From Candidatus Aminicenantes bacterium (lineage in GTDB: Bacteria > Acidobacteriota > Aminicenantia > Aminicenantales > Saccharicenantaceae), in contig CAVWFA010000016.1 of the NCBI GenBank assembly GCA_963754085.1, positions 451,213 through 515,212 on the forward strand: 64,000 nucleotides of DNA, read 5' to 3'. The notes under the pieces were generated by a model. The model was not told the origin of the DNA. It saw only the letters and a program-made list of their open reading frames with translations, and searched no databases. Both the position numbers and the translations under genes were made by a program. Positions 5,612-53,587 of this stretch are shown here, piece after piece (position 1 is the stretch's first letter; every line of letters begins with the position of its first letter).

Positions 5612-8600
5612 TTATCTGATGATCCTGTAGATCTCCCGCCAGGATTTGATCCGCATGAGAGAGCCGATCGGCTGCTCCAGCTTCTCCAGCGTGGAGTCGT
5701 ATTCCTGGACGTAGATCTCGCGCTTGTTGACGCGGCCGGCCACCCGCTCCGCCTCGCCGACGGTCACGGCGCGGCGGGCCTTGCTGATGAGGTCGAGGTA
5801 TTCGGGGGGGGTGATCGCCGTCGTCTTGAAGGCGGTCCCGCCGACGGGGATGGCCGAGGTATAGCGAATGTAGCGGGCGTAGAGCCGGCCCGCTTCGCCG
5901 AGGTTGACGCAAGGATTGACGGCCTCGATGCTGCCCCGGAGCGTGCTGAAGTAGACGACCTGATCGGCGATGATCGGGTCGGCCCAGACCTTGCTGCCTT
6001 GGCCCAGCTCGCCCCGCTGATAGGAGGCGTCCCGGTTGAGCCGGGCGGGCACGCCCAGGTACCATTCCACGGTGGCCGCGTTGCCGCCGTTGTCGATGAG
6101 GCCGACGAACGAATAGTCCCTGTTGTCCGGCGCGAGGTCGTCGCCGCCCGTGCCGAAGTAGACGCGGGCCCGGGCCGGACCGCCTTCCAGGGGATCGGCC
6201 CATACGGCCGGCTTGGTGACGATGGGGTAGTTGAGATAGTCGGTGTAGATCGCCGTGGGGGTCCAGCCCGACGGATTCGTGCCGGTCACGTTCAGGCGGT
6301 AGAGCCGGCCGTCGAGATCGCCGACGAACACGGAGTCGGTGAAGCCGTTCTGGTCGAGGTCGATGGCCGTCGGCGAGCCCGGGATGGTCGCGACGATGTT
6401 CGCATAGCTATAGGCCGCCCGCGCGCCGGAGAGGCTGGCCGTATTGACTTGCGAGACATCGCTCGTGGCGGTGATGAACTCGCCCGTATCCATCCGGACG
6501 ATGTAGAATCGCCGGCCGAGGCTGAAGCTCCCGGACTTGACGTTGTCGTAGCCCGAGCCCATGAAGGCCACCCAGCGGGCCGTCCCGGAATGGCTGACTT
6601 TCCCGACGGCCGGGGTCGACCAGGTCTCGCCCATGCTCGGGTAGGTCCTGTTCCCGGACCTGTAGGTGTGCGTGATCTCCCAGAGGGGCCGAGGATCGGC
6701 GGGGTCGGTGACGTCGAGGGCCCAGTAGTAGTTGATGGCGCCGGTGATGTTCCCGCTGCCGAGGATGCTGCCGAAGCCGGGTCCCTGGCCGGTGACGAGG
6801 ACCGTTCTCCAGGCCCCGTTGATCAGGACGTCGGCCACGGCCGGGGAGCCGTCACAGTAGACGTCGTGGGCGTAAAAGCGCGCATTGTTGGCGGCGTCGA
6901 CCGCGTACATGTTCCGGAGCTTGGGGAGGAGATTGTAGGGAATGAACCCCCAGAGCTCTTCGCCCGTGGCGACGTCGAAGCAGTGGAGCATGCCGTCGTT
7001 GGCCCCGACGTAGAGGACCTTCGGTCGCGCGGCATGGGCCTCTTTGAACTCGGCGTAGCCCGTCCCCATGTAGGCGGAATCTTGCGCAGGCGGGCCGACG
7101 ACGACCGGCGTCGAGTGATTGATGTCGCCCAGCTTCCAATAGCGGTTCGTGCCCCGGACGAAATCGACCAGCCCGGCGTTGTCGTTGTTGACGTCCTTCA
7201 GGCACCAGGCCAGGGTCCCGGCGGTCGACGGGTTGCCGACGTTGGTCCGGACGAAGTTCGTCCGGACGAGCGGATTGGTCACGGTGCCGCCCGCCCGAAG
7301 GGCCGTGTAGATCGTTCGCGTATCGGGGTTCCGGTCGTCGAGGAGCTGACCGGCGTCCCAATAGATCCCAGCCCCGGGGATCAGGGTCCGGCCGGTGGCG
7401 TCGTTGAGGTCGGAGGTGGAGATCGTCTGCAGCTCCGAGTTCGTCCCGGCGGCGAACGAGACCCCGGTCATGTCGTAGGCCCGGATCTGGCCCTCCCAGC
7501 CGGGGAAGATGAAGGACGAGCCGATGACGAGCTTCTTGTCGAGGCCGCTTTCCGTGACGATGGTCGCGGCGGCCGAGGCGCGGGAATACTCCCGCCGGTC
7601 GACGTAGATGAACTCGATCTGGAGGTCGTCGACATAGGGCGTCTCGAACGAGGCGTGCTGGTAATCCACCATGGGATCCTCTTCCGCCGTCAGGACGACC
7701 CGCCAGCGGAGGTCGGCCCCGAAGTTCTTGAAATCGTACCAGGCCAGGTTCGTCCGGTTGACGATGCCCGCCGCGGAGAAGGTCTGATAGATCTCCCAGC
7801 TCTGGCCGCCGTTGTTGGAAAAGAGGAGCTGGACAGCCAGCCCGGCGCTCGAGCCGCTGAGGACACCCTGTCGGAGGGAGCTGACCCGGACTCGGGTGAC
7901 GGCGTGGAGGCGGGGATCGAGGAGGCCGGTGCCGACGTTGGTCGACGTCGCCTGACCGTAAAGCTCGAAGACGTTGGCCAGCTCGTTCTCGATGTAATAG
8001 TAGTCGCCCGAATGGTTGGCGTCGGCGACGACGATGTCCATGTCGCCGTCGTGGTCGTAGTCGAGCGCCGTGGCCATGTCGATGTCGTAGGGCGAAGGCG
8101 TCGGGGCCGTGCAGGCGTTGAGGCACTGGAACAGCCAGTTGACGTCGCCGTTGACGAGGCCGCGGTTGCGCAGGAACCAGATCCGGGCCTGGGGAACACT
8201 GCCGTAGGCCGAGTCCGTGGCCACGAAAAGGTCCGGCCGGCCGTCGCCGGTGAAGTCGTCGGCCAGGATGCCGACCACGGCGACGCAGGTGGCGTTGGTG
8301 ATAGCGATCTCGTTGCGGGCGAAATGGCCCGTGCCGTCGTTCTCGTAGTAGACGAGGTAGGGGGTCGTGCCGACCGTGCCGGCGACCACGTCGACGTCGC
8401 CGTCGCCGTCGAAATCGGCGGCGGCCACGGCCGAGCCGCCGGGAGTGCCGTTGAAGCCGGTCCGGGCGTCGTAAGACAGCTCGGTGATGCTCCAGCTGGC
8501 CAGGTTAAAGTTGCCGGGGCCCGGGTTCCGGAGGAGGTAGACCCTGTCCTGGCTGATCGCCAGGATATCGACGTCGCCGTCCCGGTCGATGTCGACGGAG

Positions 8601-9316
8601 CAGAGGTGGTTGGCCGCCCAGAAGATGTAGATCGGGACGGCCTGGAAGCGCGCGGTGAAATCGAGGTTCGGACTGATGTGGGCAGCCCGGAAATGAGGGG
8701 CCGTCGCGGTGCCGATGTTGATGTACATCACGGCCATGAAGTTCGTGTAGCCGAACTGGTCGGCGCCGTTGCGCATCAGCATGAAATCGAGCAGGCCGTC
8801 GCCGTTATAGTCCCCGGCCGTCATCGAGGCCGGGCCGGTATGAGTGTTGAAGCTGTCATATGAAGTCGCCATGTCCACGGTAAAGAGGGGCGGCGCGCCC
8901 AGGTTGGTGGGATAGTTGCTCGGGATCAGGCGAAGCTCGGAATAGGGGGTGCCTGCGGTCACAGGGAATTCCCCGGTGATGTCCAATCCGACGAGATCGG
9001 GGTAGCCGTCCCCGGTGAAGTCGCCGGAGGCGCACTGGTAGATCCGGCGGCCCATCCGGTCGGCCGAGCCGACGACGAAGTTCGAGCCTAGGCGCGGCAG
9101 GGTGATGGGGCCGGCGGGCCAGGCGGCGACGGAGCTTTGGGAGAGGTCCTTGAAATTGACGGTGTCGAAGTTCTCGGCGAAGGACCGCGTATACTCGGTG
9201 CAAACCTGGGCCACCTGCGGCCAGAGGCGCGGCACGACGACGGCCGCGGCGACGGCGACGCAGAGGACGGCGAGAACATTCAGGCTCCCTTGGCGCTTCA
9301 AGCCTTTGTGGTTCAT
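5612..9316 (-). CDS. PilY1-like type IV pilus tip adhesin with N-terminal FG-GAP/VCBS-type repeats
   Basis: 1234 aa. Repeated DFxGDGxxD motifs occur (GDFTGDGYPD, GDYNGDGLLD, DIDRDGDVD, ADFDGDGDVD, DDFTGDGRPD, DYDHDGDMD). The C-terminal half carries the PilY1 propeller signature: WKLGDINHSTPVVVGPP...VLYVGANDGMLHCFDVATGEELWGFIPYNLLPKL. Confidence 0.8.
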   Translation of the reverse strand: MNHKGLKRQGSLNVLAVLCVAVAAAVVVPRLWPQVAQVCTEYTRSFAENFDTVNFKDLSQSSVAAWPAGPITLPRLGSNFVVGSADRMGRRIYQCASGDFTGDGYPDLVGLDITGEFPVTAGTPYSELRLIPSNYPTNLGAPPLFTVDMATSYDSFNTHTGPASMTAGDYNGDGLLDFMLMRNGADQFGYTNFMAVMYINIGTATAPHFRAAHISPNLDFTARFQAVPIYIFWAANHLCSVDIDRDGDVDILAISQDRVYLLRNPGPGNFNLASWSITELSYDARTGFNGTPGGSAVAAADFDGDGDVDVVAGTVGTTPYLVYYENDGTGHFARNEIAITNATCVAVVGILADDFTGDGRPDLFVATDSAYGSVPQARIWFLRNRGLVNGDVNWLFQCLNACTAPTPSPYDIDMATALDYDHDGDMDIVVADANHSGDYYYIENELANVFELYGQATSTNVGTGLLDPRLHAVTRVRVSSLRQGVLSGSSAGLAVQLLFSNNGGQSWEIYQTFSAAGIVNRTNLAWYDFKNFGADLRWRVVLTAEEDPMVDYQHASFETPYVDDLQIEFIYVDRREYSRASAAATIVTESGLDKKLVIGSSFIFPGWEGQIRAYDMTGVSFAAGTNSELQTISTSDLNDATGRTLIPGAGIYWDAGQLLDDRNPDTRTIYTALRAGGTVTNPLVRTNFVRTNVGNPSTAGTLAWCLKDVNNDNAGLVDFVRGTNRYWKLGDINHSTPVVVGPPAQDSAYMGTGYAEFKEAHAARPKVLYVGANDGMLHCFDVATGEELWGFIPYNLLPKLRNMYAVDAANNARFYAHDVYCDGSPAVADVLINGAWRTVLVTGQGPGFGSILGSGNITGAINYYWALDVTDPADPRPLWEITHTYRSGNRTYPSMGETWSTPAVGKVSHSGTARWVAFMGSGYDNVKSGSFSLGRRFYIVRMDTGEFITATSDVSQVNTASLSGARAAYSYANIVATIPGSPTAIDLDQNGFTDSVFVGDLDGRLYRLNVTGTNPSGWTPTAIYTDYLNYPIVTKPAVWADPLEGGPARARVYFGTGGDDLAPDNRDYSFVGLIDNGGNAATVEWYLGVPARLNRDASYQRGELGQGSKVWADPIIADQVVYFSTLRGSIEAVNPCVNLGEAGRLYARYIRYTSAIPVGGTAFKTTAITPPEYLDLISKARRAVTVGEAERVAGRVNKREIYVQEYDSTLEKLEQPIGSLMRIKSWREIYRIIR

Positions 9317-9340
9317 GGCATATCCCCTTTTCTTGGGGTC

Positions 9341-9895
9341 CTAGGACCCCACCTCGATGACGATCTCGATGCGTTTGAAGGTGTTGCGCGGCCCCCGGCC
9401 GATGCAGACGAGGATGCAGTCGTTGTCGTCGGCGGTGATCGTCCCCGGCGCTTCGTCGTTGATGAGGAAGACCGTGAACGAGCAGCGCGGGTCCGTCGCC
9501 AGCGGTTCGGAGGCGAAAAGAGCCGGATTGGCGGCCGTGTTGTCGGCGGCGATATCGGCGACGAGCTGTTCGTCGGTCAGGCTGCGGAAGTAGCTCGGGC
9601 TGGTCGGATCGTCCAGTCCCGGCGTGCCGGCGAAATTCGTCCGGTACTGGCCGCCGAAGCTCGTGGAGAGCCTGTTCAGGAAGTTGTCGTTGAGGACGAC
9701 CCAGGCGGCGTTGAAACCCGCCTCGGCGGCGTCGAAGGCCATCCCCTGGAGGCGCAGGCTGTCGGAGGCCTGGGGGCTCGTCCCCGTGATGGTCAGCAAG
9801 AGCATGCCGACCGCCAGCATGAAAGCGACGATCATGATGACCACGATGAGCCCCATGCCTCGCTCCCGGCCGCGGCTGTTGGCGGATGTGATCAT
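9341..9895 (-). CDS. PilX-like minor pilin / pilus assembly protein
   Basis: 184 aa. The N-terminus RGMGLIVVIMIVAFMLAVGMLLLTITG is of PilX_N type. Position is between the PilW-like and PilY1-like genes. Confidence 0.65.
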   Translation of the reverse strand: MITSANSRGRERGMGLIVVIMIVAFMLAVGMLLLTITGTSPQASDSLRLQGMAFDAAEAGFNAAWVVLNDNFLNRLSTSFGGQYRTNFAGTPGLDDPTSPSYFRSLTDEQLVADIAADNTAANPALFASEPLATDPRCSFTVFLINDEAPGTITADDNDCILVCIGRGPRNTFKRIEIVIEVGS

Positions 9896-9905
9896 GGGAC
9901 TCTCC

Positions 9906-11006
9906 TCATCGCTGGCCGATGTTGTAGAGATTGAGGGACATGTTCCGAACGTTCGAGGTCGATTCGACCAGGAACCGCCGGTGCCGGTCGTCGGCCGCGG
10001 CGGCCGGGCTGTTGGACAGGGCCGGGCGGCGATAGGTCTGGATGGCGCCGGGGACGCGGCCTCCGACCGAGGTGAACGGCTGGGCCGTCCGGCCGAGGAC
10101 CCACATCCGGACCTGCTGGATCCGGGCGACCTGGGCGAGCGTCCAGGCGTTGTTCCAGGGAGACCAGCCGTCGAGGATGAGATCGTTATCCATGTCGCCG
10201 TTGTATTCGAGCTGGAAGTTCTCGATGTTGCGGGCCAGGGGGAAGTGGACCCCGTTGTGAGTGCAATAGAGCACCCCGCCGTCGCCCCCGCCGATGTAGC
10301 CGTTGAGGCCCGCGGTCAGTCCGGGATAGTCGCCCGTGATGTCGAGCCAGTATTCTTTGACGTCGATGAAGCTGATCATGCCCCCGTCATAGTCATTGGG
10401 GCTCGGGCAGGTCCCGGACAGGCCGCCCGGGGGATCGACGCCCGGCGCCAGGCCCGGAGAGAAGTTGAAGCGCTCGTTGGCCCCGCCGGTGTTGTGGGTC
10501 ACGTGGGTGACGACGCGGACCTCGCCCGCCCGGCAGCCCGATGCGGGATCGGGCAGGACGATGACGAATTTGTTGGCGTAGAACGCGTCCGAGTACGCGT
10601 ATTGCTCGAAGCTGAAATCTTCGATGTCCAGGACGACGGACGAACCCTGGTAGTTCCTGATCGGGAGGTTGAGCGGCTCCTCGATGTTGCCCATGAGCGT
10701 GACCCGGTCCGGCAGGACCTCTTCGCCCTGGTCTTCGTTGTCCTGCGCCTCGATGAAGTAGCCGGAGAACTCCTCCGGCAGCCCGGCCCCGGCCATGCGC
10801 AGGTCCCGGCTGAGGAAGAACATCGAGGAGCGGACGTCGTTCTGGATCTCGGTGACCATCTGCTGCTCGACCGAGACCTTGTTGCTGCGGGTATAGACCA
10901 TCAGCGCCCCGAGGATGGCGATCAGCATGACGCTGCCGCCGACGAGGAGCTCGATCATGGTGAAGCCCGCGGCCCGTTTGGAGGGGGGGGTCGGAGATGT
11001 GCTCAC
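9906..11006 (-). CDS. PilW-like type IV minor pilin (prepilin-type N-terminal cleavage/methylation domain)
   Basis: 366 aa with AAG|FTMIELLVGGSVMLIAILGAL. Confidence 0.75.
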   Translation of the reverse strand: MSTSPTPPSKRAAGFTMIELLVGGSVMLIAILGALMVYTRSNKVSVEQQMVTEIQNDVRSSMFFLSRDLRMAGAGLPEEFSGYFIEAQDNEDQGEEVLPDRVTLMGNIEEPLNLPIRNYQGSSVVLDIEDFSFEQYAYSDAFYANKFVIVLPDPASGCRAGEVRVVTHVTHNTGGANERFNFSPGLAPGVDPPGGLSGTCPSPNDYDGGMISFIDVKEYWLDITGDYPGLTAGLNGYIGGGDGGVLYCTHNGVHFPLARNIENFQLEYNGDMDNDLILDGWSPWNNAWTLAQVARIQQVRMWVLGRTAQPFTSVGGRVPGAIQTYRRPALSNSPAAAADDRHRRFLVESTSNVRNMSLNLYNIGQR

Positions 11007-11019
11007 GGTTCGCGCTCCT

Positions 11020-11457
11020 TTACCGGGTGATGATCGTCGAGATCAGCGCCCGCGGCCGGTGCCGGTCGGGATCGGCCAGCAGCTCCACGGCGGTCGGCAC
11101 GGCCAGCTTTTCGGCGGAGAAGACGTAGACGATGACCTGGAACGTGTCCCCGACGCTGCTGAAGCCGGTGATCCGCCGGAAATCGTTCGTGCCGTCGAGG
11201 TTGAGGTCGACGATCTCGTCGCGCGCCTCGAGGCTCGTGCCGGCGTAGGCCGCCAGCTCGTCCAGGGTGAACCCCCGGAGCCAGTCGATCTGCTGCTGGG
11301 CCAGGAAGGTCGCGTTGGCCACACGGTCGGCCTTGAGGTTGTTGGCGACGGAAGCCAGGAACAGCTGGGCCAGCCCGAGCACGGCGACGGCGACGAGGAA
11401 GAGGCTGAGCATCACTTCGATCAGGCTGAAACCGCGGTCATGCTTGTGTGTTTTCAT
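11020..11457 (-). CDS. PilV-like type IV minor pilin
   Basis: Start taken at MKTHKHDRG|FSLIEVMLSLFLVAVAVLGLAQ (short basic leader, GGAGA upstream). Track ORF 11020..11481 begins 8 codons earlier. Confidence 0.7.
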   Translation of the reverse strand: MKTHKHDRGFSLIEVMLSLFLVAVAVLGLAQLFLASVANNLKADRVANATFLAQQQIDWLRGFTLDELAAYAGTSLEARDEIVDLNLDGTNDFRRITGFSSVGDTFQVIVYVFSAEKLAVPTAVELLADPDRHRPRALISTIITR

Positions 11458-11458
11458 C

Positions 11459-12007
11459 TCAGGAGCTCTTTCTCCGGGCATATTGGATCGATCCGCCCAT
11501 GTAGAGGCTCAGGACCCGCTCGTCCATGACATCGGGCTGATCGGGCCGGTCGAGCTTGGGATTCTGCAGAACGATGGAATTCAGGTTGGCGGCGAAATTG
11601 GCCACGGTGCCCATGGGGGAGAAGACGGCCGTGGGGTCTCCCCCGTCGAGGGGCAGGGAAAGGGTCAGGTTAAAGCTCTCGGGAATGTCCTTGGGCGGCG
11701 TGGGTCGGGCCTTGGTCCAAGTCCCGTCGGCCTCGAGCTGCTCCATGTCATAGGCCCAGTAGGTCCCGCTGGGCTGATAGAAGCGCACGCGGTGCGGGAT
11801 CTTGGTGCTGACCGCCCGGTTCTTGGTCATCTGGAGGAACGTCTGGATCTCGCGGGTCTTGTTCTCGAGGTTCCTCTCCGCCATGACATTGAGGACGCTC
11901 GGGATCGAAACGAGCATGAAGATGGCCATGATGCCGATGACGACGAGGACCTCGATCAAGGTGAAGCCCGCGGCGGCCCGGCGCGTCGAAGAAGGGAGGG
12001 ATTTCAT
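11459..12007 (-). CDS. FimT/GspH-like type IV minor pilin
   Basis: Start taken at MKSLPSSTRRAAAG|FTLIEVLVVIGIMAIFMLV, residue 59 of track ORF 11459..12181. GGAAGGA lies upstream. Confidence 0.7.
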   Translation of the reverse strand: MKSLPSSTRRAAAGFTLIEVLVVIGIMAIFMLVSIPSVLNVMAERNLENKTREIQTFLQMTKNRAVSTKIPHRVRFYQPSGTYWAYDMEQLEADGTWTKARPTPPKDIPESFNLTLSLPLDGGDPTAVFSPMGTVANFAANLNSIVLQNPKLDRPDQPDVMDERVLSLYMGGSIQYARRKSS

Positions 12008-12043
12008 AGGCGGGTCCTTCCGTCCATCCTGATTTTCTTCTTC

Positions 12044-12072
12044 CTTATAGAACAATAGTTGGGCCATTTCAA
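12044..12072 (-). promoter_or_regulatory. putative sigma-70 promoter of the minor-pilin operon
   Basis: Minus strand reads TTGAAA-N17-TATAAG, 36 nt upstream of the ATG at 12007. Confidence 0.4.
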
Positions 12073-12211
12073 GGCGGCTCCTCAGGCCATTCCGCCACGG
12101 TGCATTATCCGGCGCCGCCCCCGCCGAGGCAATCATCGCAACTGGTGATTGGACGGGTGATTTTGCGAGGAGGAGCCTCACCCCGAACGGCTAGCCCGGC
12201 GGGCGGCGGCT

Positions 12212-14560
12212 CTAGCGGCCCGCCGAAACGGTCTTCTTGAGCTCGGCGACCCCGGCGACGCCGCTGTTGAAGAGGACGCAGCGGGCCGAGTCGAGGAGCC
12301 GGCCGAAGAAGGCCTTCTGGGCTTCGAGCTTTTCCGGCGTTCCCCCGAGGAGATGGGGGTTGAAATAGGGCTGGACCTGGCCGGCGGTCAGGGCCTTCTT
12401 GGCCCCGGCCGCTTCGCCGGCCTCGAGGGTCCGCAGGGCCTCGTCCTTGCCGAGCTCGACGACGGCCGGGGACGTGGCGTCGTTCCGAAGAAGCACCAGC
12501 CACTTCAGGTCCGTCCGCCGGGCCGCGGCGTCCGGGCCGCCGAGCCAGGCCGGGTCGAGCAGGGCGTGGGCCTCCTTGGCGGCCTTGTAGCAGTAGGCCG
12601 AGCCCCGGTCCAGCCGGCAGTCGTCCGTCCGCTGGCACTCGAGGTCCTGGCAGCCCTCCTTTTGGAGGGCGACGTTCTCGCACTTGCTCCGGTCGAAGAG
12701 CGGCGCCAGCCGCGGGTCGAGCTCGACCGCCGCCGTCGGCACGAAGAGCTTCCGCTCGACGCGGTCGGCGGCGGCCCGGCCGCCGGCGATCTCGACGAAG
12801 ACGATGTCGTTCGAGTGGAGCTTGAAGCGCGGGTCGGCCAGCAGCTCGAAGAAGAGCTCCGTCTTCTTCGTCCCCGGCGGCCCGACGAGGATGAGCCCGC
12901 GGCCGTCCGCGTCCGCGGACATGCCCCGCACCGCTCCCGCGGCGCCTCCGCCCGAGCGCATCGAGATGTCCGTGGCCAGCCCGAGGGCCAGGCCGCGGAG
13001 GGTCCCGTAATGATCGGTGTTGACCAGGACGCCCGTCTGCGTCGCCTCGTGATAGAAGCCGCGCGGCTCGCGGCCGGCGATCCCGTCGACGGCGTAGATG
13101 ACGCCGTGCGGCCGGACGTCGGCCTCGGCCGGGGCCGGCGGGAAGTTCTCGACCCAGAAATCGTTGAGATGGGCGACGTTGGTCCGCAGCTGCAGGACGG
13201 CCCCGCCGACGCGGGCGTTCCACTCGTAGCGGCCCTCGTAGCCCAGGTGCCCTTCCATCTCGGCGACCAGGGCGTCGCGCAGCCGGGCGTCGGGCACGAC
13301 GTCGACCGGCACGGCCTTCCGGACCCGGGTCACGGCGTTGCTCAAAGCGACGCGCTGGACCTTCTTGGCCGTCTTCAGCCTGCCCAGGGCCTCGACGATC
13401 CGGTCCATGCTCTTCTCGAGATTGGTCATGGAGGTCGCATAGGACAGCCGGATGTAGTCGTCGGCGCCGAAGGCGTCGCCGGGGACGATGGCCACCCGGG
13501 CCTCCTTCAGCAGGTAGTAGGCCATGCCGTAGGAGTTGCGGATCTTGGCCCCGCCCGCTTCCTTGTCGTAGAACGACCGGACGTTGGGGAAGAGATAGAA
13601 CGCGCCCTGCGGCTTGAAGCACGCGAGGCCCGGGACCGCGGCCAGCCGCATCAGGCAGTAGTTGCGGCGGCGCTGGAACTCCGCGACCATCTTCTGGACT
13701 TCGTACTGGGGGCCCTCGTAGGCCTCGAGGCTGGCCTTTTGGGCGATGGAGCAGGCGTTGGAGGTCGTGTGGCTCTGGATCTTGGACATGCCGTCGATGA
13801 CCTCGGCCGGCCCGGCGGCGAAGCCGATCCGCCAGCCGGTCATCGAGTAGGACTTGGACACCCCGTTGACGACGATGGTCTTCTTCTTGATGTCCTCGCC
13901 GAGCGCGGCGAAGCTCGTGAACTTGAAGTTGTCGTAGACGAGACTGGCGTAGATCTCGTCGGCGATGACGTAGACGTCCTCGCCCTTGATCACCTCGGCC
14001 AGGGCCAGGAGCTGGTCCTTCGTGTAGGCCCCGCCGGTCGGGTTCGAGGGATTGTTCAGGATGATGGCCTTCGTGGCCGGGGAGATCGAGGCCTTGAGGG
14101 TCTCGGGCGTCAGCAGGAAGCCGTCCTCTTCGCGCGTCGGGACGATGACCGGCTTGCCTTTGGCCAGGGCGACGCACTCGGGATAGGTGACCCAATAGGG
14201 GGCCGGGATGATGACCTCCTCCCCCTCGTCGACCAGGGCCTGGACGAGGTGGAAGAGGGAGGCCTTGGCCCCGGCCGAGACGATGATCTGCTTCGGGCCG
14301 TACTCGAGACCGTAGTCGTCCTTGAGGCGTTTGGCGATGGCCTTGCGCAGGGCCAGGATGCCGTCGCTCTCGGTATATTTCGTGAAGTTGTCGCGGATGG
14401 CCTTGATCCCGGCCTCCTTGACGTTCTCCGGCGTGGGGAAATCGGGCTCGCCGACGCTGAGGTCGATGACGTCGATCCCCTCGGCCTTCATGGCCTTGGC
14501 CTTGGCCGAGATCTTCAAGGTGGGGGAGGCGCCGATGCGCTGGACTTTTTCAGAGATCAT
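12212..14560 (-). CDS. fusion protein: class I PLP aminotransferase (AspC-like) plus a C-terminal HprK/PEPCK-like P-loop domain
   Basis: Single uninterrupted 782-aa ORF. Residues 1-395 carry LSVGEPDFPTP, NPSNPTGG and the PLP-lysine motif NGVSKSYSMTGWRIG. Residues 400-782 carry RGLILVGPPGTKKTELFFELLADPRFKLHSNDIVFVE (compare HprK GxSGxGKSExxLEL...ADD.V) plus a 5-Cys patch, CENVALQKEGCQDLECQRTDDCRLDRGSAYC. Confidence 0.8.
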   Translation of the reverse strand: MISEKVQRIGASPTLKISAKAKAMKAEGIDVIDLSVGEPDFPTPENVKEAGIKAIRDNFTKYTESDGILALRKAIAKRLKDDYGLEYGPKQIIVSAGAKASLFHLVQALVDEGEEVIIPAPYWVTYPECVALAKGKPVIVPTREEDGFLLTPETLKASISPATKAIILNNPSNPTGGAYTKDQLLALAEVIKGEDVYVIADEIYASLVYDNFKFTSFAALGEDIKKKTIVVNGVSKSYSMTGWRIGFAAGPAEVIDGMSKIQSHTTSNACSIAQKASLEAYEGPQYEVQKMVAEFQRRRNYCLMRLAAVPGLACFKPQGAFYLFPNVRSFYDKEAGGAKIRNSYGMAYYLLKEARVAIVPGDAFGADDYIRLSYATSMTNLEKSMDRIVEALGRLKTAKKVQRVALSNAVTRVRKAVPVDVVPDARLRDALVAEMEGHLGYEGRYEWNARVGGAVLQLRTNVAHLNDFWVENFPPAPAEADVRPHGVIYAVDGIAGREPRGFYHEATQTGVLVNTDHYGTLRGLALGLATDISMRSGGGAAGAVRGMSADADGRGLILVGPPGTKKTELFFELLADPRFKLHSNDIVFVEIAGGRAAADRVERKLFVPTAAVELDPRLAPLFDRSKCENVALQKEGCQDLECQRTDDCRLDRGSAYCYKAAKEAHALLDPAWLGGPDAAARRTDLKWLVLLRNDATSPAVVELGKDEALRTLEAGEAAGAKKALTAGQVQPYFNPHLLGGTPEKLEAQKAFFGRLLDSARCVLFNSGVAGVAELKKTVSAGR

Positions 14561-14591
14561 GGTTCACCTGCCTCGACGCCCGGCCGGGCGC

Positions 14592-16001
14592 TCACTTCTT
14601 CGCGTCTTTGGCCTCGGGGGAGAGCTTGGTCTTGAGGAACTCGCGGATGTCGGCCCCGGTCAGGGACTTGACCACCTCGGGCATCTGGGCCAGCACCTGG
14701 GCCACCTGGCCCGTGATCTTGGTCGTGCCGAGGTCCTTGTCGCCGCTGACGATGACGATCTTGTCGACCTTGGACAGGGGCTCCGAGACGGCCTTGGCCA
14801 GCTCGGGCAGGACCTTGATGTAGGTGTCGAGGACCGCGGCCTGGGTGTACTTCTCCCAGGCCTGGGCCTTCTTCATCATGGCCTCGGCCTCGGCGGCGCC
14901 CTTGGCCCGGATCTCGTCGGCTTCGGCCAGGCCCTCGAGCTTGAGGGCCTCGGACTTGCCCTTGGCCTCGGCGGTGATGCGGAACTCTTCGGCCTCGGCT
15001 TCGGACTTGATCTGGTATTTCCGGGCGTCGGCGGGTTTGATGACCGTCGCCTCGAGCTCCCGTTCCTTGCGGGCGATCTCGAGCTGCTCGGTCTTGATGG
15101 CCTCTTCCTTCTCGATCTGCTTGACCTTGGCTTCTTCCTTCTTGAGGTCTTGGTTGATCCGGTTGCGCTCGAGCTCGTAGGAGAAATCGGCCTGGGCCTT
15201 CTTGGTGTTGACGAAGACCTGGGATTCGGCCTTCTTGGCCTCGTTCTCCCACTGGGCCTTGGCGATCTGGGCCTCGGACTGGAGGCGGGCCACCTCGGCT
15301 TCCTTGCGGGCCATGGAGGCCTTGATGATCGATTCCTTCTCGGTCTCGGCTTGGGCGATGGACGCGTCGCGCTTGGCCGCGGCGATCATGGGCTTGCTCA
15401 GAGAGTCGATATAGCCCTGCGTGTCGCTGATGTCCTTGAGGGCGAAGGAGAGCATGACCAGGCCCATGGCGTGGAAATCCTCCTTGACGGCCGCGATGAC
15501 GCGCTTCGAGAACTCCTGGCGGCCGCGGTAGATCTCCTCGACCGACATGCCCCCGATGACCTCGCGGACCTTGCCTTCGAGGACGTTGATGACCACGTCG
15601 CGGATGCCGTCGCGGCCGATGCCCAGGAACTGCTCGGCGGCCCGGTGGATGGTCTCGTCGGAGGAGTCGATCTTGACCTGGGCCGAGGCCTCGGCCATGA
15701 TCGGCACGCCGCCGTTGGTCAAGACCTCGGGCGTGCGGATCGAGACGGGGATGATGTCCATGGGGAGGACGTAGACCTTCTCCATGCCGGGCCAGACGAA
15801 CACGCCGCCGCCCAGGCGGTAGCGGTAGCCGATCTTCTGGGTGGTCCCGTCGGCCAGGGCGATCGTGCGCTTGCGTCCCCCGGCGATGATGAGGGCCTCG
15901 TTGGGCCCGACCTTCCGGTAGCGCAGGGCCAGGACCAGGATGATCAGGGCGAAGAGAGCGACGACGGCGCCGGCGATGATGAGCCAGGATGTCAGATTCA
16001 T
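14592..16001 (-). CDS. flotillin / SPFH (band 7) domain protein
   Basis: Start at MNLTSWLIIAGAVVALFALI with GAGGAGG 7 nt upstream. An SPFH core is followed by a long EA-rich coiled coil (KAQWENEAKKAESQ...). The track ORF starts 20 codons earlier at a GTG. Confidence 0.85.
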   Translation of the reverse strand: MNLTSWLIIAGAVVALFALIILVLALRYRKVGPNEALIIAGGRKRTIALADGTTQKIGYRYRLGGGVFVWPGMEKVYVLPMDIIPVSIRTPEVLTNGGVPIMAEASAQVKIDSSDETIHRAAEQFLGIGRDGIRDVVINVLEGKVREVIGGMSVEEIYRGRQEFSKRVIAAVKEDFHAMGLVMLSFALKDISDTQGYIDSLSKPMIAAAKRDASIAQAETEKESIIKASMARKEAEVARLQSEAQIAKAQWENEAKKAESQVFVNTKKAQADFSYELERNRINQDLKKEEAKVKQIEKEEAIKTEQLEIARKERELEATVIKPADARKYQIKSEAEAEEFRITAEAKGKSEALKLEGLAEADEIRAKGAAEAEAMMKKAQAWEKYTQAAVLDTYIKVLPELAKAVSEPLSKVDKIVIVSGDKDLGTTKITGQVAQVLAQMPEVVKSLTGADIREFLKTKLSPEAKDAKK

Positions 16002-16103
16002 AGCGACCTCCTCAAGAGGACTCCCCGTCGGGCGGGGGAAAGATCGAAAAAAAGACCTCACCGACTTTGCGTGACGGGCCTTTTTTCCGGGTTCTGAGCC
16101 TAG

Positions 16104-35166: not shown

Positions 35167-37149
35167 ATGCCCATGAGCCGCTTCATCGCCAGACGGAAGG
35201 TCGAGAGCCTGCCCCGGATCCCTCTGCGCGGGACGATCGACCTGACCTACCGGTGCGGCAACGACTGCCGCCACTGTTGGCTTCGGCTCGCGCCGGATGC
35301 GGCCGAGCGCGCGGCCGAGCTGACGTCCGGCGAGATCCGCCGCGTCGTCGACGAGGCCCGGAAGCGGGGCTGCCGGGAATGGGCCATCTCCGGCGGCGAA
35401 CCCATGCTCCGCCCGGACTTCGCCGAGGTCTTTTCGGGGATCATCGAAAAGTCCTTCCGGTATACGCTGAACACGAACGGCACCCTGATCACCCCGGCCA
35501 TCGCCCGCCTGCTGAGGCGGCCGGGCGCCAAGCTCGTCGCGCTCTACGGCGCCACCTCAGCGGTCCACGACGCGGTCACGCGCCAGCCGGGCTCGTTCGC
35601 GGCCCTCGAGCGGGGCGTTGCCTATCTCCGGGAAGCGGGGGCGGCTTTCACGGTCCAGGTCGTTCCCATGCGGACCAACATCGCCGATTACGAAGCCATG
35701 GTCCGTCTGGCGGGATCGTGGAGCCCGAGCTGGCGGGTGGGCGCCACCTGGCTCTATCTCTCGGCCTCCGGCGACCCGCGGCGCAACCGCGATATCCGGG
35801 CCGAGCGCCTGGACCCGGCCCGGGTGGCCGAGCTCGATCAGGTCTTTGCCGGAGGCGCCGGCGATCCGGACAGGGACGCCGCGATCGCGTGCGCCGCCGC
35901 GCGCGCCGTGACCGAAGGGCTCTATGCGGCCTGCCTGGCCGGCCGGCGCGATTTCCACATCGATCCGTACGGCGGCCTGAGCTTCTGCTCGTTCGTCAAA
36001 GACCCCGCCCTGCGCCTCGACTTGAGATCGATGAGCTTCGCCGAGGCTTGGGAAGAGCGCCTGCCGCGGCTGGCGGAGGCCGTCAGGCCGTCCGCGGCCT
36101 ACGGCGACGGATGCGGGACCTGCGACCTGAGGGCCGACTGCAAGTGGTGCCCGGTCTACGCCTATCTCGAGCACCGGGACCACTCGGCGAAGATCGAGGG
36201 GCTCTGCGCGATCGCCCGGGAAACGCGCCGGGCCCGGACGGAATGGCTCGGCGCGCACCGCCGCCGCTTCGGCATCGCCGGCCTCGCGGTCGACGTCGAG
36301 TCCGACCTGCCGATCACCGACGGGACGTTCGACCCCAAGTTCGAGCCCTTTCGGGTCCCGGCCGACGGGCCGGCCGATATCGTCCTCCGCCATCACTTCT
36401 CCCTGCCCGACCTCGACGCCTTCGACCTGGGCCGGGAGGTCTACCGCCGGGCGCCCTGGGCGATCTTCCGCAAAGACTCGTCCTGGATCTACGTCATGAT
36501 CTCCCCCGATCCGTCCGACGCGACGGTCCACCGCGTCATGGTCTTCGACGACGGGCACACCCGGGGCCGCATCTACAGCCCGTCGGACGGCTTCTTCCGA
36601 TCCGGCGGCCTCGATTCGCTGGCTCTGCTGCCCTCGGACCAGCTCGTCCTGGCCCGGGCCCTGCCGGCCTTCGGCGGCCTCTATGTGCATGCGGCGGGGG
36701 TGGACATGGGCGGGCACGGCCTCGTGTTCGCGGGCCCGTCGGAAGCCGGCAAATCGACCATGGTCAAGCTCATCGGGGACCGGGGCCGGGTCCTCTGCGA
36801 CGACCGGGTCATCGTCCGCAAGAGCGCCGGGGGGGTCCGCGTCCACGGGACCTGGAACCACGGCGAGATCCCGCGCGTGTCGCCGGCTTCGGCGCCCGTG
36901 CGCGCGGTCTTCTTCCTTCGACAGGCGAAGACGAACCGCCTCGACCGCGTCGAGGATCCCCGGGCCGTGCTGGCCGATCTCCTGCCCCGCCTGGTCCGGC
37001 CGCTGGTCTCGTCCGACTGGTGGGAGCGGGCCCTGGCCCTGGCCGCCGAGATCGTCCGCGACGTGCCGTTCTACGACCTGTCCTTCGACCGGAGCGGGGA
37101 CATCGTCCGCGTCCTCGAGGAATTCCTGGGCCAGGCGGACGGGCCATGA
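35167..37149 (+). CDS. radical SAM/SPASM peptide-maturase-like enzyme fused to a C-terminal HPr-kinase-related P-loop domain
   Basis: 660 aa. The radical SAM motif is CGNDCRHC, followed by SGGEPMLRPD. The SPASM Cys cluster is CGTCDLRADCKWCPVYAYLE. From about residue 380 the sequence reads YVHAAGVDMGGHGLVFAGPSEAGKSTMVKLIGDRGRVLCDDRVIV (P-loop at nt 36733-36759). Confidence 0.85.
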   Translation: MPMSRFIARRKVESLPRIPLRGTIDLTYRCGNDCRHCWLRLAPDAAERAAELTSGEIRRVVDEARKRGCREWAISGGEPMLRPDFAEVFSGIIEKSFRYTLNTNGTLITPAIARLLRRPGAKLVALYGATSAVHDAVTRQPGSFAALERGVAYLREAGAAFTVQVVPMRTNIADYEAMVRLAGSWSPSWRVGATWLYLSASGDPRRNRDIRAERLDPARVAELDQVFAGGAGDPDRDAAIACAAARAVTEGLYAACLAGRRDFHIDPYGGLSFCSFVKDPALRLDLRSMSFAEAWEERLPRLAEAVRPSAAYGDGCGTCDLRADCKWCPVYAYLEHRDHSAKIEGLCAIARETRRARTEWLGAHRRRFGIAGLAVDVESDLPITDGTFDPKFEPFRVPADGPADIVLRHHFSLPDLDAFDLGREVYRRAPWAIFRKDSSWIYVMISPDPSDATVHRVMVFDDGHTRGRIYSPSDGFFRSGGLDSLALLPSDQLVLARALPAFGGLYVHAAGVDMGGHGLVFAGPSEAGKSTMVKLIGDRGRVLCDDRVIVRKSAGGVRVHGTWNHGEIPRVSPASAPVRAVFFLRQAKTNRLDRVEDPRAVLADLLPRLVRPLVSSDWWERALALAAEIVRDVPFYDLSFDRSGDIVRVLEEFLGQADGP

Positions 37150-49208: not shown

Positions 49209-50696
49209 ATGACGCTCAGGCAAAGACTCGACCAGAGGCAGGTGCAGAAGCTCATCCTGGCCCCGGCCCTCCAGCAGGCCATCAAGCTCCTGCCGCTGAC
49301 CAACCTCGAGCTCATCGAGGTCATCGACGCGGAGCTCGCCCAGAATCCCATGATCGAGATCGAGGACGAGGCCCGCGAGGGCCCGGCCAAGGACAGCGAG
49401 ACCGTGGCCGCCGAGGAGGCCGGGGTCAAGAACAGGGACAGCGTCCTCGACGGGCTGAGCCTCGAATCGACCGAGCCGAAGATCACCGGCGATCCGTCCG
49501 TCGACAACATCCTGGCCGGCTTCCAGGAATATCTCGACGAGGGCTTCCGCCCCCATTTCCATGAGAGCCGCGAGGCCGTCTCGCTCGAGAACACGATCTC
49601 GCGGACGCCCTCGCTCTGGGACCACCTGAACTGGCAGGCCGCGCTGACCTTCTTCGAGGCCGCGGACCAGGAGATCGCCCAGTTCATCATCGGCAATATC
49701 AACGAGGACGGCTATCTGACGTCCCCCGTCGAGGAGATCGCCCGGCTGTCGCAGACGGCGCCGGAGAAGGTCGAGGCCGTCCGGGCCAAGATCAAGACCC
49801 TCGACCCCGTGGGCTGCGGCAGCCTGGACCTGCGCGAGGCGCTGCTCGCGCAGATGGACCATCTCCAGGTCGGGGACGAAATGGCCCGGACGATCGTGAC
49901 CCAGCACCTGCCGCTCCTCGAACGGTCCGATTACGCCCATCTGGCCAAGTTGCTGGGCGCCTCCCTCGGCGAGATCCGGGCGCGCATCGACGTGATCAAG
50001 GGGCTGGACCCGGCCCCGGGGCGGAAGTACAGCGAGGAGAAGACGAGCTACGTCGTCCCGGACATCAACGTCACCAAGGAAGGCGACGAGTGGACGATCG
50101 TCGTCAACGACGAGGGCCTGCCCCGCCTCCGCATCAGCGGCTTCTACCGCCAGCTCCTGGCCAAGGCGGGCGCGGGCGAGCCCGAAGCCTACCGCTTCCT
50201 CAAGGACAATCTGAAGAAGGCCCTCTGGTTCATGCGCAGCCTCGACCAGAGGAACCAGACGATCTACAAGGTCGCCCGGTTCATCGTCGACCGCCAGAAG
50301 GAGTTCTTCGACAAGGGCATCGACTACATCAAGCCCCTGACCCTGATGGAGATCGCCCAGGACATCGGCGTCCACGAATCGACCGTCGGGCGCGTCGTGG
50401 CCAACAAGCACATGATGACCCCCCGCGGCGTCTTCTCGCTGAAGTACTTCTTCCACAAGTCCCTGCAGGGGAGCTACGGCGAGGACGTTTCGTCCCTCAA
50501 GGTCAAGGACAAGATCCGCAAGCTCGTCGACGCCGAGAACAGGGACAATCCCCTGAGCGACATCGAGATCGGCGATCTCCTGGCCCGGGAGGACCTGCGC
50601 ATCGCCCGGCGCACGGTGGCCAAGTATCGCAACCAGCTCGGCATCGAGCCCTCCCACATCCGGAAGAGAAGGTCCAGCATGGAGGAGAAAGCATGA
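49209..50696 (+). CDS. rpoN: RNA polymerase sigma-54 factor
   Basis: 495 aa with the N-terminal region I LxQxLxL-type sequence (LRQRLDQRQVQKLILAPALQQAIKLL) and the RpoN box ARRTVAKYR. Confidence 0.95.
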   Translation: MTLRQRLDQRQVQKLILAPALQQAIKLLPLTNLELIEVIDAELAQNPMIEIEDEAREGPAKDSETVAAEEAGVKNRDSVLDGLSLESTEPKITGDPSVDNILAGFQEYLDEGFRPHFHESREAVSLENTISRTPSLWDHLNWQAALTFFEAADQEIAQFIIGNINEDGYLTSPVEEIARLSQTAPEKVEAVRAKIKTLDPVGCGSLDLREALLAQMDHLQVGDEMARTIVTQHLPLLERSDYAHLAKLLGASLGEIRARIDVIKGLDPAPGRKYSEEKTSYVVPDINVTKEGDEWTIVVNDEGLPRLRISGFYRQLLAKAGAGEPEAYRFLKDNLKKALWFMRSLDQRNQTIYKVARFIVDRQKEFFDKGIDYIKPLTLMEIAQDIGVHESTVGRVVANKHMMTPRGVFSLKYFFHKSLQGSYGEDVSSLKVKDKIRKLVDAENRDNPLSDIEIGDLLAREDLRIARRTVAKYRNQLGIEPSHIRKRRSSMEEKA

Positions 50697-51214
50697 ACGT
50701 CCACTATACGGCGCGCAAGACGGCCCTGACGCCCGAGATCCGGGCCTATTGCGAGAAGCGGCTGGCCCGCCTGAAGGACCTCGTCGACGCCGTCCTCGAC
50801 GTCAACGTCATCCTCAACATCCAGAGGACCCGGAACAAGGCCGAGATCCACGTCCGGGCCAAGGGCGTCGGCTACGTCGTCATCGAGGAAGCCCAGGACA
50901 TGATGGATTCCCTGAACCGGGCTTTCGACACCCTGGAGACGCGGATCCGCAAGGACCGGGCCAAGTGGCGCGAGAAGAAGCGGCGGGGCGGGCGGGAGCG
51001 GAAGGCCCTGGCCCCGGTGGTCGCCGCGCCGGAACCCGAGAACAGGGTCATCCGGGCCAGCTTCTTCTCGCTCAAGCCCATGTCGCTCGAGGAGGCCATC
51101 ATCCAGCTCGACGCGAAGGCCAAGGAGGTCTTCCTGTTCCGGCGCGAGGGCTCCCAGGAATGGGCCGCCGTCTACCGGCGGAAGGACGGCCAATACGGGC
51201 TTATCGAGCCCTGA
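50693..51214 (+). CDS. hpf: ribosome hibernation promoting factor (long form)
   Basis: MNVHYTARKTALTPEIRAYCEKRL..., with the C-terminal extension SLKPMSLEEAIIQLD. It has an ATGA overlap with rpoN. Confidence 0.9.
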   Translation: MNVHYTARKTALTPEIRAYCEKRLARLKDLVDAVLDVNVILNIQRTRNKAEIHVRAKGVGYVVIEEAQDMMDSLNRAFDTLETRIRKDRAKWREKKRRGGRERKALAPVVAAPEPENRVIRASFFSLKPMSLEEAIIQLDAKAKEVFLFRREGSQEWAAVYRRKDGQYGLIEP

Positions 51215-51233
51215 CGGGCGGCGGGGGAGAAGA

Positions 51234-51704
51234 ATGAAGCTGCACGCGCTCCTCGACGACGGCCTGGTCCTGCCGCGCCTGGAAGCCCGCGACCGGACGG
51301 GCGTTCTCCGCGAGATGGCGGCCCGGCTGGAGGCCCGGCACGCGCCCGACCTCGACGACACGCTCCTCGACAAGCTCCTGAAGAGGGAGGAGCTGGGCAC
51401 CACGGCGATCGGCAAGGGGGTGGCCGTGCCCCACTGCCGGGCCAAGGGCCTCAAGGCCCCGGCCCTTCTGCTCGGCCTCTCGCCGGATGGGGTCGCCTTC
51501 GATGCGGTGGACGGCAAGCCCTCCCACGTCTTCTTCCTCCTGGTCTCGCCCGAGGACAATCCGGGCGCCGGGCTCCGGCTGCTGGCGGCGATCGCCGGCC
51601 TCGTCCGGAGGTCGCGGGGCCTCTCGTCGAAGCTGATCAAGGCGCCGACGCCGGAGGCCATCATCGGCGTCCTCCGGGCCGAGGAGGAGAAGCCGCGTGC
51701 CTGA
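51234..51704 (+). CDS. ptsN: PTS EIIA-Ntr nitrogen regulatory protein
   Basis: 156 aa with GTTAIGKGVAVPHCR (active-site His). Confidence 0.85.
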   Translation: MKLHALLDDGLVLPRLEARDRTGVLREMAARLEARHAPDLDDTLLDKLLKREELGTTAIGKGVAVPHCRAKGLKAPALLLGLSPDGVAFDAVDGKPSHVFFLLVSPEDNPGAGLRLLAAIAGLVRRSRGLSSKLIKAPTPEAIIGVLRAEEEKPRA

Positions 51705-53135: not shown

Positions 53136-53179
53136 TCAGGTTTGTCATACAATAGCGGACTGATCGGGAGAGCACATTC

Positions 53180-53587
53180 ATGATCGGAGGCATCATTGTC
53201 TGCCACGGCCGCATGGCCGAGGAGCTGCTGAACGCCTTGACGATCATCCTCGGCGAGGCGCCCAACATCGAGGCCATCTCGATCGGCTGGTACGACGACG
53301 TCGAGGATTCGAAGAAGAAGATCGCCCAGAGCATCAAGCGGGTCGACCAGAAGAACGGCGTCGTCATCTTCACCGACATGTTCGGCGGCACGCCCTCCAA
53401 CCTGAGCTTCAGCTTCTACAAGGAAAGCCAGGTCGAGATCATCACCGGGGTCAACCTGCCGATGCTGATCAAGTTCGTCTCTCTCCAGCGCGCCAACAAC
53501 CTCAAGGACGTGGCCAAGAAGGTCGTCGACCAGGGCAAGAAGAACGTCCACCTCGTCAGCGCCCTGCTCAAGACGCGGACCAAGTAG
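53180..53587 (+). CDS. PTS EIIA component, mannose/fructose family
   Basis: 135 aa with MIGGIIVCHGRMAEELL (active-site His) and FTDMFGGTPSN. Confidence 0.8.
   Translation: MIGGIIVCHGRMAEELLNALTIILGEAPNIEAISIGWYDDVEDSKKKIAQSIKRVDQKNGVVIFTDMFGGTPSNLSFSFYKESQVEIITGVNLPMLIKFVSLQRANNLKDVAKKVVDQGKKNVHLVSALLKTRTK

Follow-up and report, generated by a model that had tools for sequence, protein, structure and literature searches.

A miniature PEPCK-like module with a remodelled, arginine-rich active site is fused to an aspartate aminotransferase in Aminicenantes

What is the second half of an aminotransferase whose public names refer to its first half only? The question is raised by one gene in a 64-kb window of Candidatus Aminicenantes DNA (the window being the whole stretch that was analysed), in which an ordinary-looking aminotransferase (AT) runs on into a C-terminal module. 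The gene occurs in 80 or more Aminicenantes genomes of different species, and probably lineage-wide, yet half of it is unannotated. Public names within the 90% cluster of the window protein refer to the aminotransferase alone, and literature searches on the fusion, its family or PF27840 returned no relevant publication, in agreement with a first-pass annotation of this DNA that knew of no characterised example. Here we present evidence that the module is a miniature of phosphoenolpyruvate carboxykinase (PEPCK) whose metal site has been replaced by basic residues, and we weigh what it may do beside an enzyme that makes oxaloacetate. The gene and its two parts are:

12212–14560, minus strand: whole fusion open reading frame (ORF), 782 aa plus stop, GC content at third codon positions (GC3) 0.95, junction constant across about 58 species-level genomes
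13376–14560, minus strand: class-Ib aspartate aminotransferase (AspAT) domain, residues 1–395, from PF00155, the match to 1J32 and conservation
12215–13375, minus strand: mini-PEPCK module, residues 396–782, from AlphaFold2 (AF2), Foldseek and hhalign

No curated model matches the module, either in Pfam (E ≤ 1; PF01293 and Hpr_kinase_C included) or in NCBIfam (E ≤ 0.1; PRK09344 PEPCK models included), and its sequence gives chance-level matches only against the Protein Data Bank (PDB). When a profile of 29 orthologues is run against PDB sequences, four HprK/P entries come out on top, with E of 0.02–0.04 over about 60 residues that cover a strand, the P-loop and an 'ADD' motif. The AF2 model of the module, built from the 29-orthologue alignment, has a predicted local distance difference test score (pLDDT) of 81 and a predicted template modelling score (pTM) of 0.83. 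Searched with Foldseek against the PDB, its top 35 matches are ATP-PEPCKs (E 9e-16 to 1.5e-13, TMq 0.57–0.68, about 350–410 aligned columns), and GTP-PEPCKs come next at about 1e-10. Profile alignment agrees: with the E. coli PckA sequence, verified against 1AQ2, as reference, two hhalign runs of a broad family profile against PckA-containing profiles gave a probability of 99.5% and E of 2e-21 and 1e-21 over 347–351 columns, module residues 1–387 being collinear with PckA from about 34/39 to 454/463. A single-sequence hhalign of A1 against PckA was weak (probability 25%) and mis-registered at Tyr207, and is superseded by the broad-family profile.

By structural model and profile alike, the module is a miniature of a whole two-domain ATP-PEPCK, with a reduced N-domain and a P-loop domain, and a PEPCK homologue. 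The first-pass annotation had described an HprK/PEPCK-like P-loop domain. Its placement in the PEPCK/HprK superfamily stands, but the module is more than an HprK-like P-loop domain, the similarity to HprK being sub-threshold and limited to the P-loop strand. The InterPro/HHpred-type check suggested at that stage yields no Pfam or NCBIfam match for the C-terminal half beside the strong profile homology to PEPCK, and the half is not a well-known unrelated family.

With PckA (EC 4.1.1.49, PF01293; E. coli 1AQ2, Thermus 1J3B) the module shares the two-domain fold over its whole length, the collinear profile homology and the motifs Tyr-Gly-x-x-basic, P-loop GxxGxxK[ST], x-D (D269), ENV, L-L-x-x-D and NTG/NSG. 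It differs in being about 150 residues shorter, with a reduced N-terminus and the adenine-binding subdomain gone, in its fusion to an aminotransferase, and in having no match to the family model and no counterpart of two Mn ligands, R333 and K288. The C-terminal adenine-binding segment (PckA R449/I450/T455) is missing in that the module ends at about PckA 454–463 and the aligned residues are unconserved. HprK/P (PF07475), ScmC (TIGR04249/PF27840) and HprK_rel_A/B (TIGR04352/TIGR04355) belong to the same superfamily and can be aligned over the roughly 60 residues of strand, P-loop and acidic motif, whereas the PEPCK N-domain, ENV, the R333 region and NTG are found in the module and not in HprK, and R545 and N584 stand where HprK has its signature His and first Asp.

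The module has many relatives. Profile search recovered 337 representatives at E ≤ 1e-3 (50% clustering), with 205 of them at E ≤ 1e-10, and a profile of stand-alone members recovered 611 clusters at E ≤ 1e-10, with family matches down to E 1e-97. The window module aligns with the full-length profile and carries W-x5-PA, PHG, Y-G-x-x-[KR], the P-loop, ER, ENV, LDP, NP-x-LL and N-[TS]-G. Members come from Thermodesulfobacteriota, Omnitrophota, Chloroflexota, Methanosarcinales, Thermoplasmatota, Methanomassiliicoccales, Nitrososphaerota and Bathyarchaeia. Stand-alone proteins of about 355–410 aa (e.g. P0084, P0103, P0104, P0246, P0272; example genes at L081 8001–9089, L085 4426–5493, L086 6001–7182 and L087 6001–7137) are all named 'hypothetical protein' and are a third shorter than PEPCK. 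Some of them match the NCBIfam PEPCK subfamily NF006821 far under its cut-off (E 1e-11 to 3e-6), and some family members have weak precomputed matches to PEPCK_ATP, Hpr_kinase_C or PF27840, the family named 'ScmC', whose matches here are only weak or faint. The stand-alone proteins resemble the window module in length, domain order and often a 4-Cys insert; they differ in lacking an aminotransferase and in keeping K213, H232, G253-K254-[ST], D268-D269, K288 (as R) and R333, and they may represent a minimal PEPCK-type enzyme class. By sequence comparison the module is a member of a mini-PEPCK family, so far undescribed, within the PEPCK/HprK superfamily, and the architecture is new.

How much of the PEPCK active site is left in the fused form? 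Residues were mapped by hhalign, and 27 stand-alone members were compared with 61 AT-fused Aminicenantes species:

PckA K213 (Mn ligand): stand-alone K, 27/27; AT-fused R522, 61/61
PckA H232 (Mn ligand): stand-alone H, 26/27; AT-fused R545, 61/61
PckA G253: stand-alone G, 27/27; AT-fused K/R565, 57/61
PckA K254: stand-alone K, 27/27; AT-fused K566, 61/61
PckA T255: stand-alone S/T, 27/27; AT-fused T567, 61/61
PckA D268: stand-alone D, 26/27; AT-fused N584, 59/61
PckA D269 (Mn ligand): stand-alone D, 26/27; AT-fused D/E585, 61/61
PckA K288: stand-alone R/K, 27/27; AT-fused P608, 56/61
PckA R333: stand-alone R, 25/27; AT-fused H665, 50/61
PckA R65: stand-alone N-terminal Arg aligning beside R65 (low confidence); AT-fused S/A416-V417

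The AT-fused clade keeps one of the three Mn ligands K213, H232 and D269, as D/E585. In the kinase-1a/kinase-2 test, K566 and T567 are invariant while G253 and D268 have given way to K/R and N, respectively. E628-N629 and Y518 are likewise invariant over the 61 species, and R497 and R603-K604 are new invariant basic residues of the clade. In the window these elements lie as follows:

13307–13345, minus strand: module N-terminal motif L406-x-N408-x2-T411-R-V-R-K-A-V-P418, conserved in the 61 species
13064–13075, minus strand: G496-R497-E498-P499 loop; R497 in 61/61 and specific to the AT-fused clade, stand-alone members having E, G, D or A
12995–13009, minus strand: Y518-G-T-L-R522, equivalent to PckA Y207...K212-K213, with Arg in place of the Mn-ligand Lys
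12920–12928, minus strand: R545-G546-M547, counterpart of PckA S-M-H232 and position of the HprK catalytic His, with His changed to Arg
12860–12883, minus strand: Walker-A-like G560-P-P-G-T-K565-K566-T567; K566 and T567 in 61/61
12806–12817, minus strand: H582-S-N584-D585, counterpart of PckA I-G-D268-D269 (kinase-2)
12749–12757, minus strand: invariant E602-R603-K604 in the PckA E282-G-G region; PckA K288 corresponds to P608
12590–12682, minus strand: C627-E628-N629 (PckA L-E311-N312) and a 4-Cys insert (C637, C642, C648, C657)
12551–12568, minus strand: H665-A-L-L-D669-P670, counterpart of PckA R333-V-S-Y-P
12260–12271, minus strand: F764-N765-S766-G767, counterpart of PckA L-V-N-T-G; N765 is invariant family-wide and the module ends about 15 residues on

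The N-terminal motif begins as soon as the C-terminal helix of the AT ends, without a true linker, and aligns, with low confidence, with PckA T59...G64-R65-S-P67. Arg497 of the GREP loop was considered as the homologue of PckA Arg65 (AVDGIAGREP vs AVDTGIFTGRSP) and rejected, both hhalign runs placing it at PckA ~174–190 and pairing the R65 segment with the N-terminal motif instead.

On balance two of three Mn ligands are lost, and about four positive charges are gained around the P-loop. We infer from these replacements that a metal-dependent catalytic site has become a metal-free, arginine-lined pocket that would bind anions. Conservation in the alignments shows the remodelled site to be under strong purifying selection.

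The relatives of the module also point towards PEPCK by gene fusion and gene order. Protein P0114 (899 aa) has an N-terminal family module and, behind it, a PEPCK_ATP domain that is significant in Pfam. P0368, 49% identical and drawn from an independent NCBI metagenome-assembled genome (MAG), likewise continues beyond its module with the N-terminus of a PEPCK until its contig ends. Conservation counts at the level of loci refer to the best 80 of 329 species genomes, with one genome per species; in 22 of these 80 loci a 610-aa PEPCK_ATP protein (E 2.4e-25) is encoded directly downstream of the AT fusion on the same strand. This neighbour has the full catalytic set and carries the NCBI name 'phosphoenolpyruvate carboxykinase (ATP)'; the one beside the fusion at L067 is UCC41205.1. 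AT-fused and PEPCK-fused modules group together in a neighbour-joining (NJ) tree, as a single clade (bootstrap 87%; PEPCK-fused group 100%, AT-fused group 72%) nested in the canonical stand-alone proteins. The change of H232 to R is common to this joint clade, and K213 to R and D268 to N mostly so. The module::PEPCK fusions, with P0369 and P0370 (Jordarchaeaceae archaeon), make up a sister clade that shares H232 to R and, though not in every member, K213 to R, D268 to N and the loss of R333. It differs from the window module in its PEPCK partner, the N-terminal place of the module, a degenerate P-loop and the absence of the Cys insert and the GREP Arg. Basal fused forms are intermediate, P0116 retaining the His and P0100 and P0101 the R333 equivalent. 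Tree and alignments together show a derived lineage that has lost the metal-ligand His and is attached to either an oxaloacetate-making or an oxaloacetate-consuming enzyme, as predicted from their sequences.

Elsewhere in the family, P0174 (754 aa) has an intein (Intein_splicing, E 1.5e-16) inside Walker A, between GTGK and STSSYGL. A divergent branch (P0137, P0163, P0177, P0179, P0204, P0208, P0233) has wholly lost Walker A and kept the 4-Cys insert, which suggests a second independent pseudoenzyme lineage. A metagenome scan for the surroundings of stand-alone relatives was swamped by the generic P-loop pattern and yielded one locus. The contexts of five stand-alone genes revealed no recurrent partner. 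Their small upstream ORFs show no relationship to one another, apart from one pair, in two related loci, that resembles ribbon-helix-helix (RHH) proteins by eye. This pair lies directly upstream of stand-alone genes in loci of Thermodesulfobacteriota type (L081 7705–7845 and L084 5778–5987; not in the three other loci) and has the motif DQIEAL.ELA.EY..KL.Q.W..SA..R.AVG.F....GK.

The partner in the window is a conventional enzyme. Pfam Aminotran_1_2 (PF00155) covers residues 30–388 with E 2e-78 and spans profile positions 2–361 of 361. The closest solved structure is the Phormidium AspAT 1J32, matched end-to-end at E 1e-110, and the rhizobial AatA/B (Sinorhizobium 6F35, 6F77), the plant Asp/prephenate AT (Arabidopsis 5WMH) and Thermus AspAT 1BJW follow, to E 1e-88. 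The pyridoxal phosphate (PLP)-binding lysine is located at:

13853–13855, minus strand: codon of Lys236 (S235-K236 in SKSYSMTGWR), aligned with the Lys of AKTYAMTGWR in 1J32 and invariant in the 61 species

Residues N173, D201, Y204, K236, R244, R371 and K99 are identical in the aligned 1J32 and at least 98% conserved over the 61 species. Their roles, including that of the subgroup-Ib Lys K99, we take from established knowledge of AspATs; K99 aligns with the omega-carboxylate-binding Lys of subgroup Ib, and R371 is the carboxylate clamp. The N-terminal half is presumably an ordinary, active class-I subgroup Ib AspAT, and the complete AspC-like PLP enzyme announced for residues 1–395 by the first-pass annotation is borne out. 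In common with subgroup-Ib AspATs and prephenate ATs it has the motifs D-E-I-Y and N-P-x-N-P-T-G together with the PLP-Lys, R371 and K99; the solved or characterised enzymes differ in having no C-terminal extension. Among NCBIfam models those for aspartate transaminases score best, yet under their equivalog cut-offs (439.8 bits against 617, 414.4 bits against 550), so the specificity of the AT is not fixed. AspAT converts aspartate and 2-oxoglutarate reversibly into oxaloacetate and glutamate. Oxaloacetate, its product from aspartate, is also the substrate of PEPCK.

Both halves are read as one protein. On the minus strand a single unbroken ORF extends from the ATG at 14560 to the stop at 12212–12214, as had been noted before with the strand unstated, and its coding signal is the strongest in the window (GC3 0.95, second codon positions 0.44, one frame). 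The motif strings quoted earlier are all in place, namely SKSYSMTGWR at residues 235–244, RGLILVGPPGTKKTELFFELLADPRFKLHSNDIVFVE at 554–590 and the 5-Cys patch CENV...AYC at 627–657. With one genome scanned per species, 329 genomes carry a relative, and the best 80 of these are all Aminicenantes or generically labelled MAGs. A single ORF of 778–792 aa is present in about 58 of the 80, the rest being cut by contig ends or frameshifted in long-read assemblies, and the fusion is seen in every recovered Aminicenantes locus that is uncut by a contig end. By tblastn the AT half begins exactly 1185 nt upstream of the C-terminal half in nearly all loci, in genomes of about 43% to 68% GC. The junction DNA (13290–13460) contains no homopolymer, repeat or low-complexity run. 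Among 61 full-length orthologues, mean identity to the window protein is 80% in the AT half and 67% in the C-terminal half (57–88%), and 146 positions of the former and 102 of the 387 of the latter are at least 98% conserved.

Several public gene versions from long contigs (P0043, P0081, P0090, P0095, P0062) are full of frameshifts, with Arg/Pro-rich out-of-frame stretches. Spurious forms of the fusion, split or truncated, are consequently numerous in protein databases and stem from long-read MAG indels or internal-Met gene calls. The many relatives that cover only about 60% of the query raised the idea of a selenocysteine or a recoded stop in the Cys patch, which was rejected in favour of the same frameshifted assemblies and internal-Met calls.

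What, then, might the module do? From a homology and an architecture that are solid, we infer a function that we hold tentatively, as a real possibility somewhat short of the probable: the module would be a PEPCK-derived accessory or sensor domain that couples the AspAT to the oxaloacetate/phosphoenolpyruvate (PEP) node. It would no longer be a Mn-dependent carboxykinase, and would bind a phosphate or carboxylate ligand (nucleotide, pyrophosphate (PPi), PEP or oxaloacetate) in its arginine-lined, metal-free pocket. Coupling could take either of two routes. The module could sense metabolite state and modulate the transaminase, or it could dock to PEPCK or hand over labile oxaloacetate on the way from Asp through oxaloacetate to PEP. 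The module probably serves no canonical kinase role, because its clade has replaced two of the three Mn ligands together with D268, K288, R333 and the Walker Gly, and the P-loops of the sister modules fused to PEPCK are degenerate. For the ATP/PPi-dependent phosphotransfer or regulatory kinase that the first-pass annotation had proposed, the invariant Walker-A Lys and Thr speak in favour, and the replacement of the other catalytic residues speaks against it.

Several observations weigh against an accessory or sensor domain. An active phosphotransferase would be expected to keep just such an invariant Walker Lys/Thr, D/E585 and E602-R603-K604. The AF2 model of the full-length protein (pLDDT 63, pTM 0.48) is of too low quality to reveal how AT and module pack, and the convergence of R497, R522, R545 and K565 on the P-loop is an assumption from homology. 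The module::PEPCK fusions found number two only, the phylogeny is a simple NJ tree, and PEPCK adjacency is limited to 22 of 80 loci, the window's own sub-clade having pilin genes downstream and no PEPCK in the 64 kb. Finally, the one universally conserved neighbour, a flotillin gene, is unaccounted for by any of the proposed models.

The same invariant residues lead to the alternative that survives best, a possible if doubtful bifunctional enzyme. Here the module would be an active PEPCK-like phosphotransferase or decarboxylase, metal-independent or differently metallated, in which Arg522, Arg545 and Lys565 stand in for the charge of Mn2+ and Asp is taken through oxaloacetate to PEP (or pyruvate) with ATP, GTP or PPi. 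The whole-PEPCK fold and homology, the invariance of K566/T567, D/E585, E602-R603-K604, E628-N629 and Y518, and the oxaloacetate made by the fusion partner are in its favour. The concerted substitutions add about four positive charges, as if offsetting a lost divalent cation, and the basal forms P0116 (His) and P0100/P0101 (R333 equivalent) suggest that fusion predates the loss of the canonical site. However, PEPCK chemistry needs Mn2+ (K213/H232/D269), R333 and R65, and here K213, H232 and R333 are replaced and R65 is S/A-V. The adenine-binding C-terminal segment is missing, the sister modules on a real PEPCK have degenerate P-loops, and in the 22 genomes where a complete PEPCK adjoins the fusion a second such activity would be redundant.

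A bolder claim, which we regard as rather unlikely, is this: the module would be an adaptor for oxaloacetate and PEP that joins AspAT to PEPCK and channels Asp through oxaloacetate to PEP, or would itself be a metal-independent PEP former, and the stand-alone ancestors would be an unrecognised minimal PEPCK class. If so, a PEPCK-derived lineage of pseudoenzymes or neo-enzymes would have recruited enzymes of the oxaloacetate node by gene fusion, from stand-alone ancestors widespread in archaea and anaerobic bacteria.

It is less likely still that the module is a small-molecule kinase with no link to oxaloacetate, acting for example on prephenate/arogenate, another 2-oxo acid or an unrelated metabolite, and that the links to PEPCK are coincidental. 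Class-Ib AspATs are often prephenate aminotransferases too, and the solved relatives include 5WMH and 6F5V; the AT falls short of the equivalog cut-offs that would fix its specificity, and stand-alone members sit in varied, uninformative contexts. Such a coincidence would have to cover three separate PEPCK links, two independent module::PEPCK fusions and the conserved adjacency, and K99, the counterpart of the omega-carboxylate-binding Lys, is invariant.

We give little credence to an HprK/P-like regulatory kinase/phosphorylase that phosphorylates the AT domain or an HPr-like partner with ATP or PPi. HprK/P entries do head the profile-versus-PDB ranking, relatives match Hpr_kinase_C, the HprK-related kinases A/B and ScmC weakly, and the genome has a regulatory cluster of the phosphotransferase system (PTS). 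The HprK P-loop accepts PPi and Pi. Yet these matches are sub-threshold and cover about 60 residues only, the fold is that of a whole PEPCK including an N-domain foreign to HprK, and the catalytic His and first signature Asp are replaced. A bona fide hprK is already in the genome, and no small-protein partner recurs beside family members.

The joining of two neighbouring genes by a sequencing or assembly error, which the split or frameshifted public relatives (P0043, P0081, P0090, P0095) might recall and which the first-pass annotation had itself raised, is for practical purposes excluded, because the single ORF recurs in about 58 independent genomes of 43–68% GC with an identical 1185-nt offset and the split forms bear the out-of-frame Arg/Pro-rich stretches typical of long-read MAG indels, while the junction DNA is clean and GC3 is 0.95 throughout.

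The family is a new branch of the PEPCK/HprK superfamily that exists in two states, a stand-alone form with the full PEPCK-like catalytic set, found in many archaea and anaerobic bacteria, and a derived arginine-site form that occurs only attached or adjacent to enzymes of the oxaloacetate node (AspAT, PEPCK). The conversion of a metal site to arginines and the Rosetta-stone pattern around oxaloacetate were unexpected. If coupling is real, labile oxaloacetate would be wired at the level of domains between transamination and gluconeogenesis, in a group, the Aminicenantes, that is named for amino-acid metabolism. The module would then offer a tractable case of a metalloenzyme site turned into a metal-free ligand-binding pocket, and the stand-alone mini-PEPCKs would be candidates for missing or alternative PEP/oxaloacetate-converting activities in metabolic reconstructions.

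The 5-Cys patch reported earlier at residues 627–657 is real, with C627, C637, C642, C648 and C657 all at least 98% conserved over the 61 species. The insert has the pattern C-x4-8-C-x4-12-C-x8-C and occupies the site of the PckA 314–329 hairpin. It occurs in many relatives, fused and stand-alone, and is missing in others (P0084, P0102, P0103, P0114). AF2 confidence is lower here (pLDDT 58–75). Most simply, the four cysteines would hold a structural Zn (or an Fe-S centre) in a hairpin close to the pocket.

On either side of the fusion the window contains:

14592–16061, minus strand: flotillin gene (SPFH and Flot by Pfam), probably co-transcribed with the fusion
14564–14574, minus strand: Shine-Dalgarno-like GAGGCAGGTGA, 3 nt upstream of the fusion ATG, read from the sequence
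5612–12181, minus strand: minor-pilin cluster directly downstream of the fusion

The flotillin gene is immediately upstream of the fusion in 72 of the 80 Aminicenantes loci, even where other neighbours differ. In the window its stop lies 31 nt before the fusion ATG, with no minus-strand terminator in the spacer, and it is preceded on the minus strand by a sigma70-like promoter, TTGACA-18-TAGAAT (11/12), at 16133–16104. The stand-alone P0246 gene (L084 7071–8072) overlaps the start of an NfeD1b/Peptidase_S49 gene by 4 nt, and P0346 has an NfeD gene nearby (L086 2091–2489). In operons, SPFH/flotillin proteins are usually partnered by NfeD proteins, so the mini-PEPCK family may have a recurrent link to SPFH systems. 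In the pilin cluster two genes are N_methyl prepilin-like and one is PilW-like, one of 184 aa is unannotated, and one encodes a PilY1-like protein of 1234 aa with FG-GAP repeats; the cluster is kept only in near relatives of the window (at most 27 of 80 loci).

Two other HprK-like modules are present in the window, which confirms the three counted by the first-pass annotation:

51697–52257, plus strand: short hprK with the C-terminal kinase domain only, 186 aa, Hpr_kinase_C E 1e-53
35167–37149, plus strand: radical-SAM protein, 660 aa, Radical_SAM at residues 26–181 and a Cys-rich SPASM-like middle

The hprK gene lies in a plus-strand region (49209–55651) between rpoN (sigma-54, 49209–50696) and ptsI (Enzyme I, 53861–55651), which looks like a regulatory PTS cluster. 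The radical-SAM protein ends in an HprK-type module (VHAAGVDMGGHGLVFAGPSEAGKSTMVKLIGDRGRVLCDDRVIV), for which the best NCBIfam model is ScmC of the SynChlorMet cassette (E 6.6e-15, below cut-off), followed by HprK-related kinase B. One protein that unites a radical-SAM maturase and an HprK-like kinase is suggestive of a system for peptide modification.

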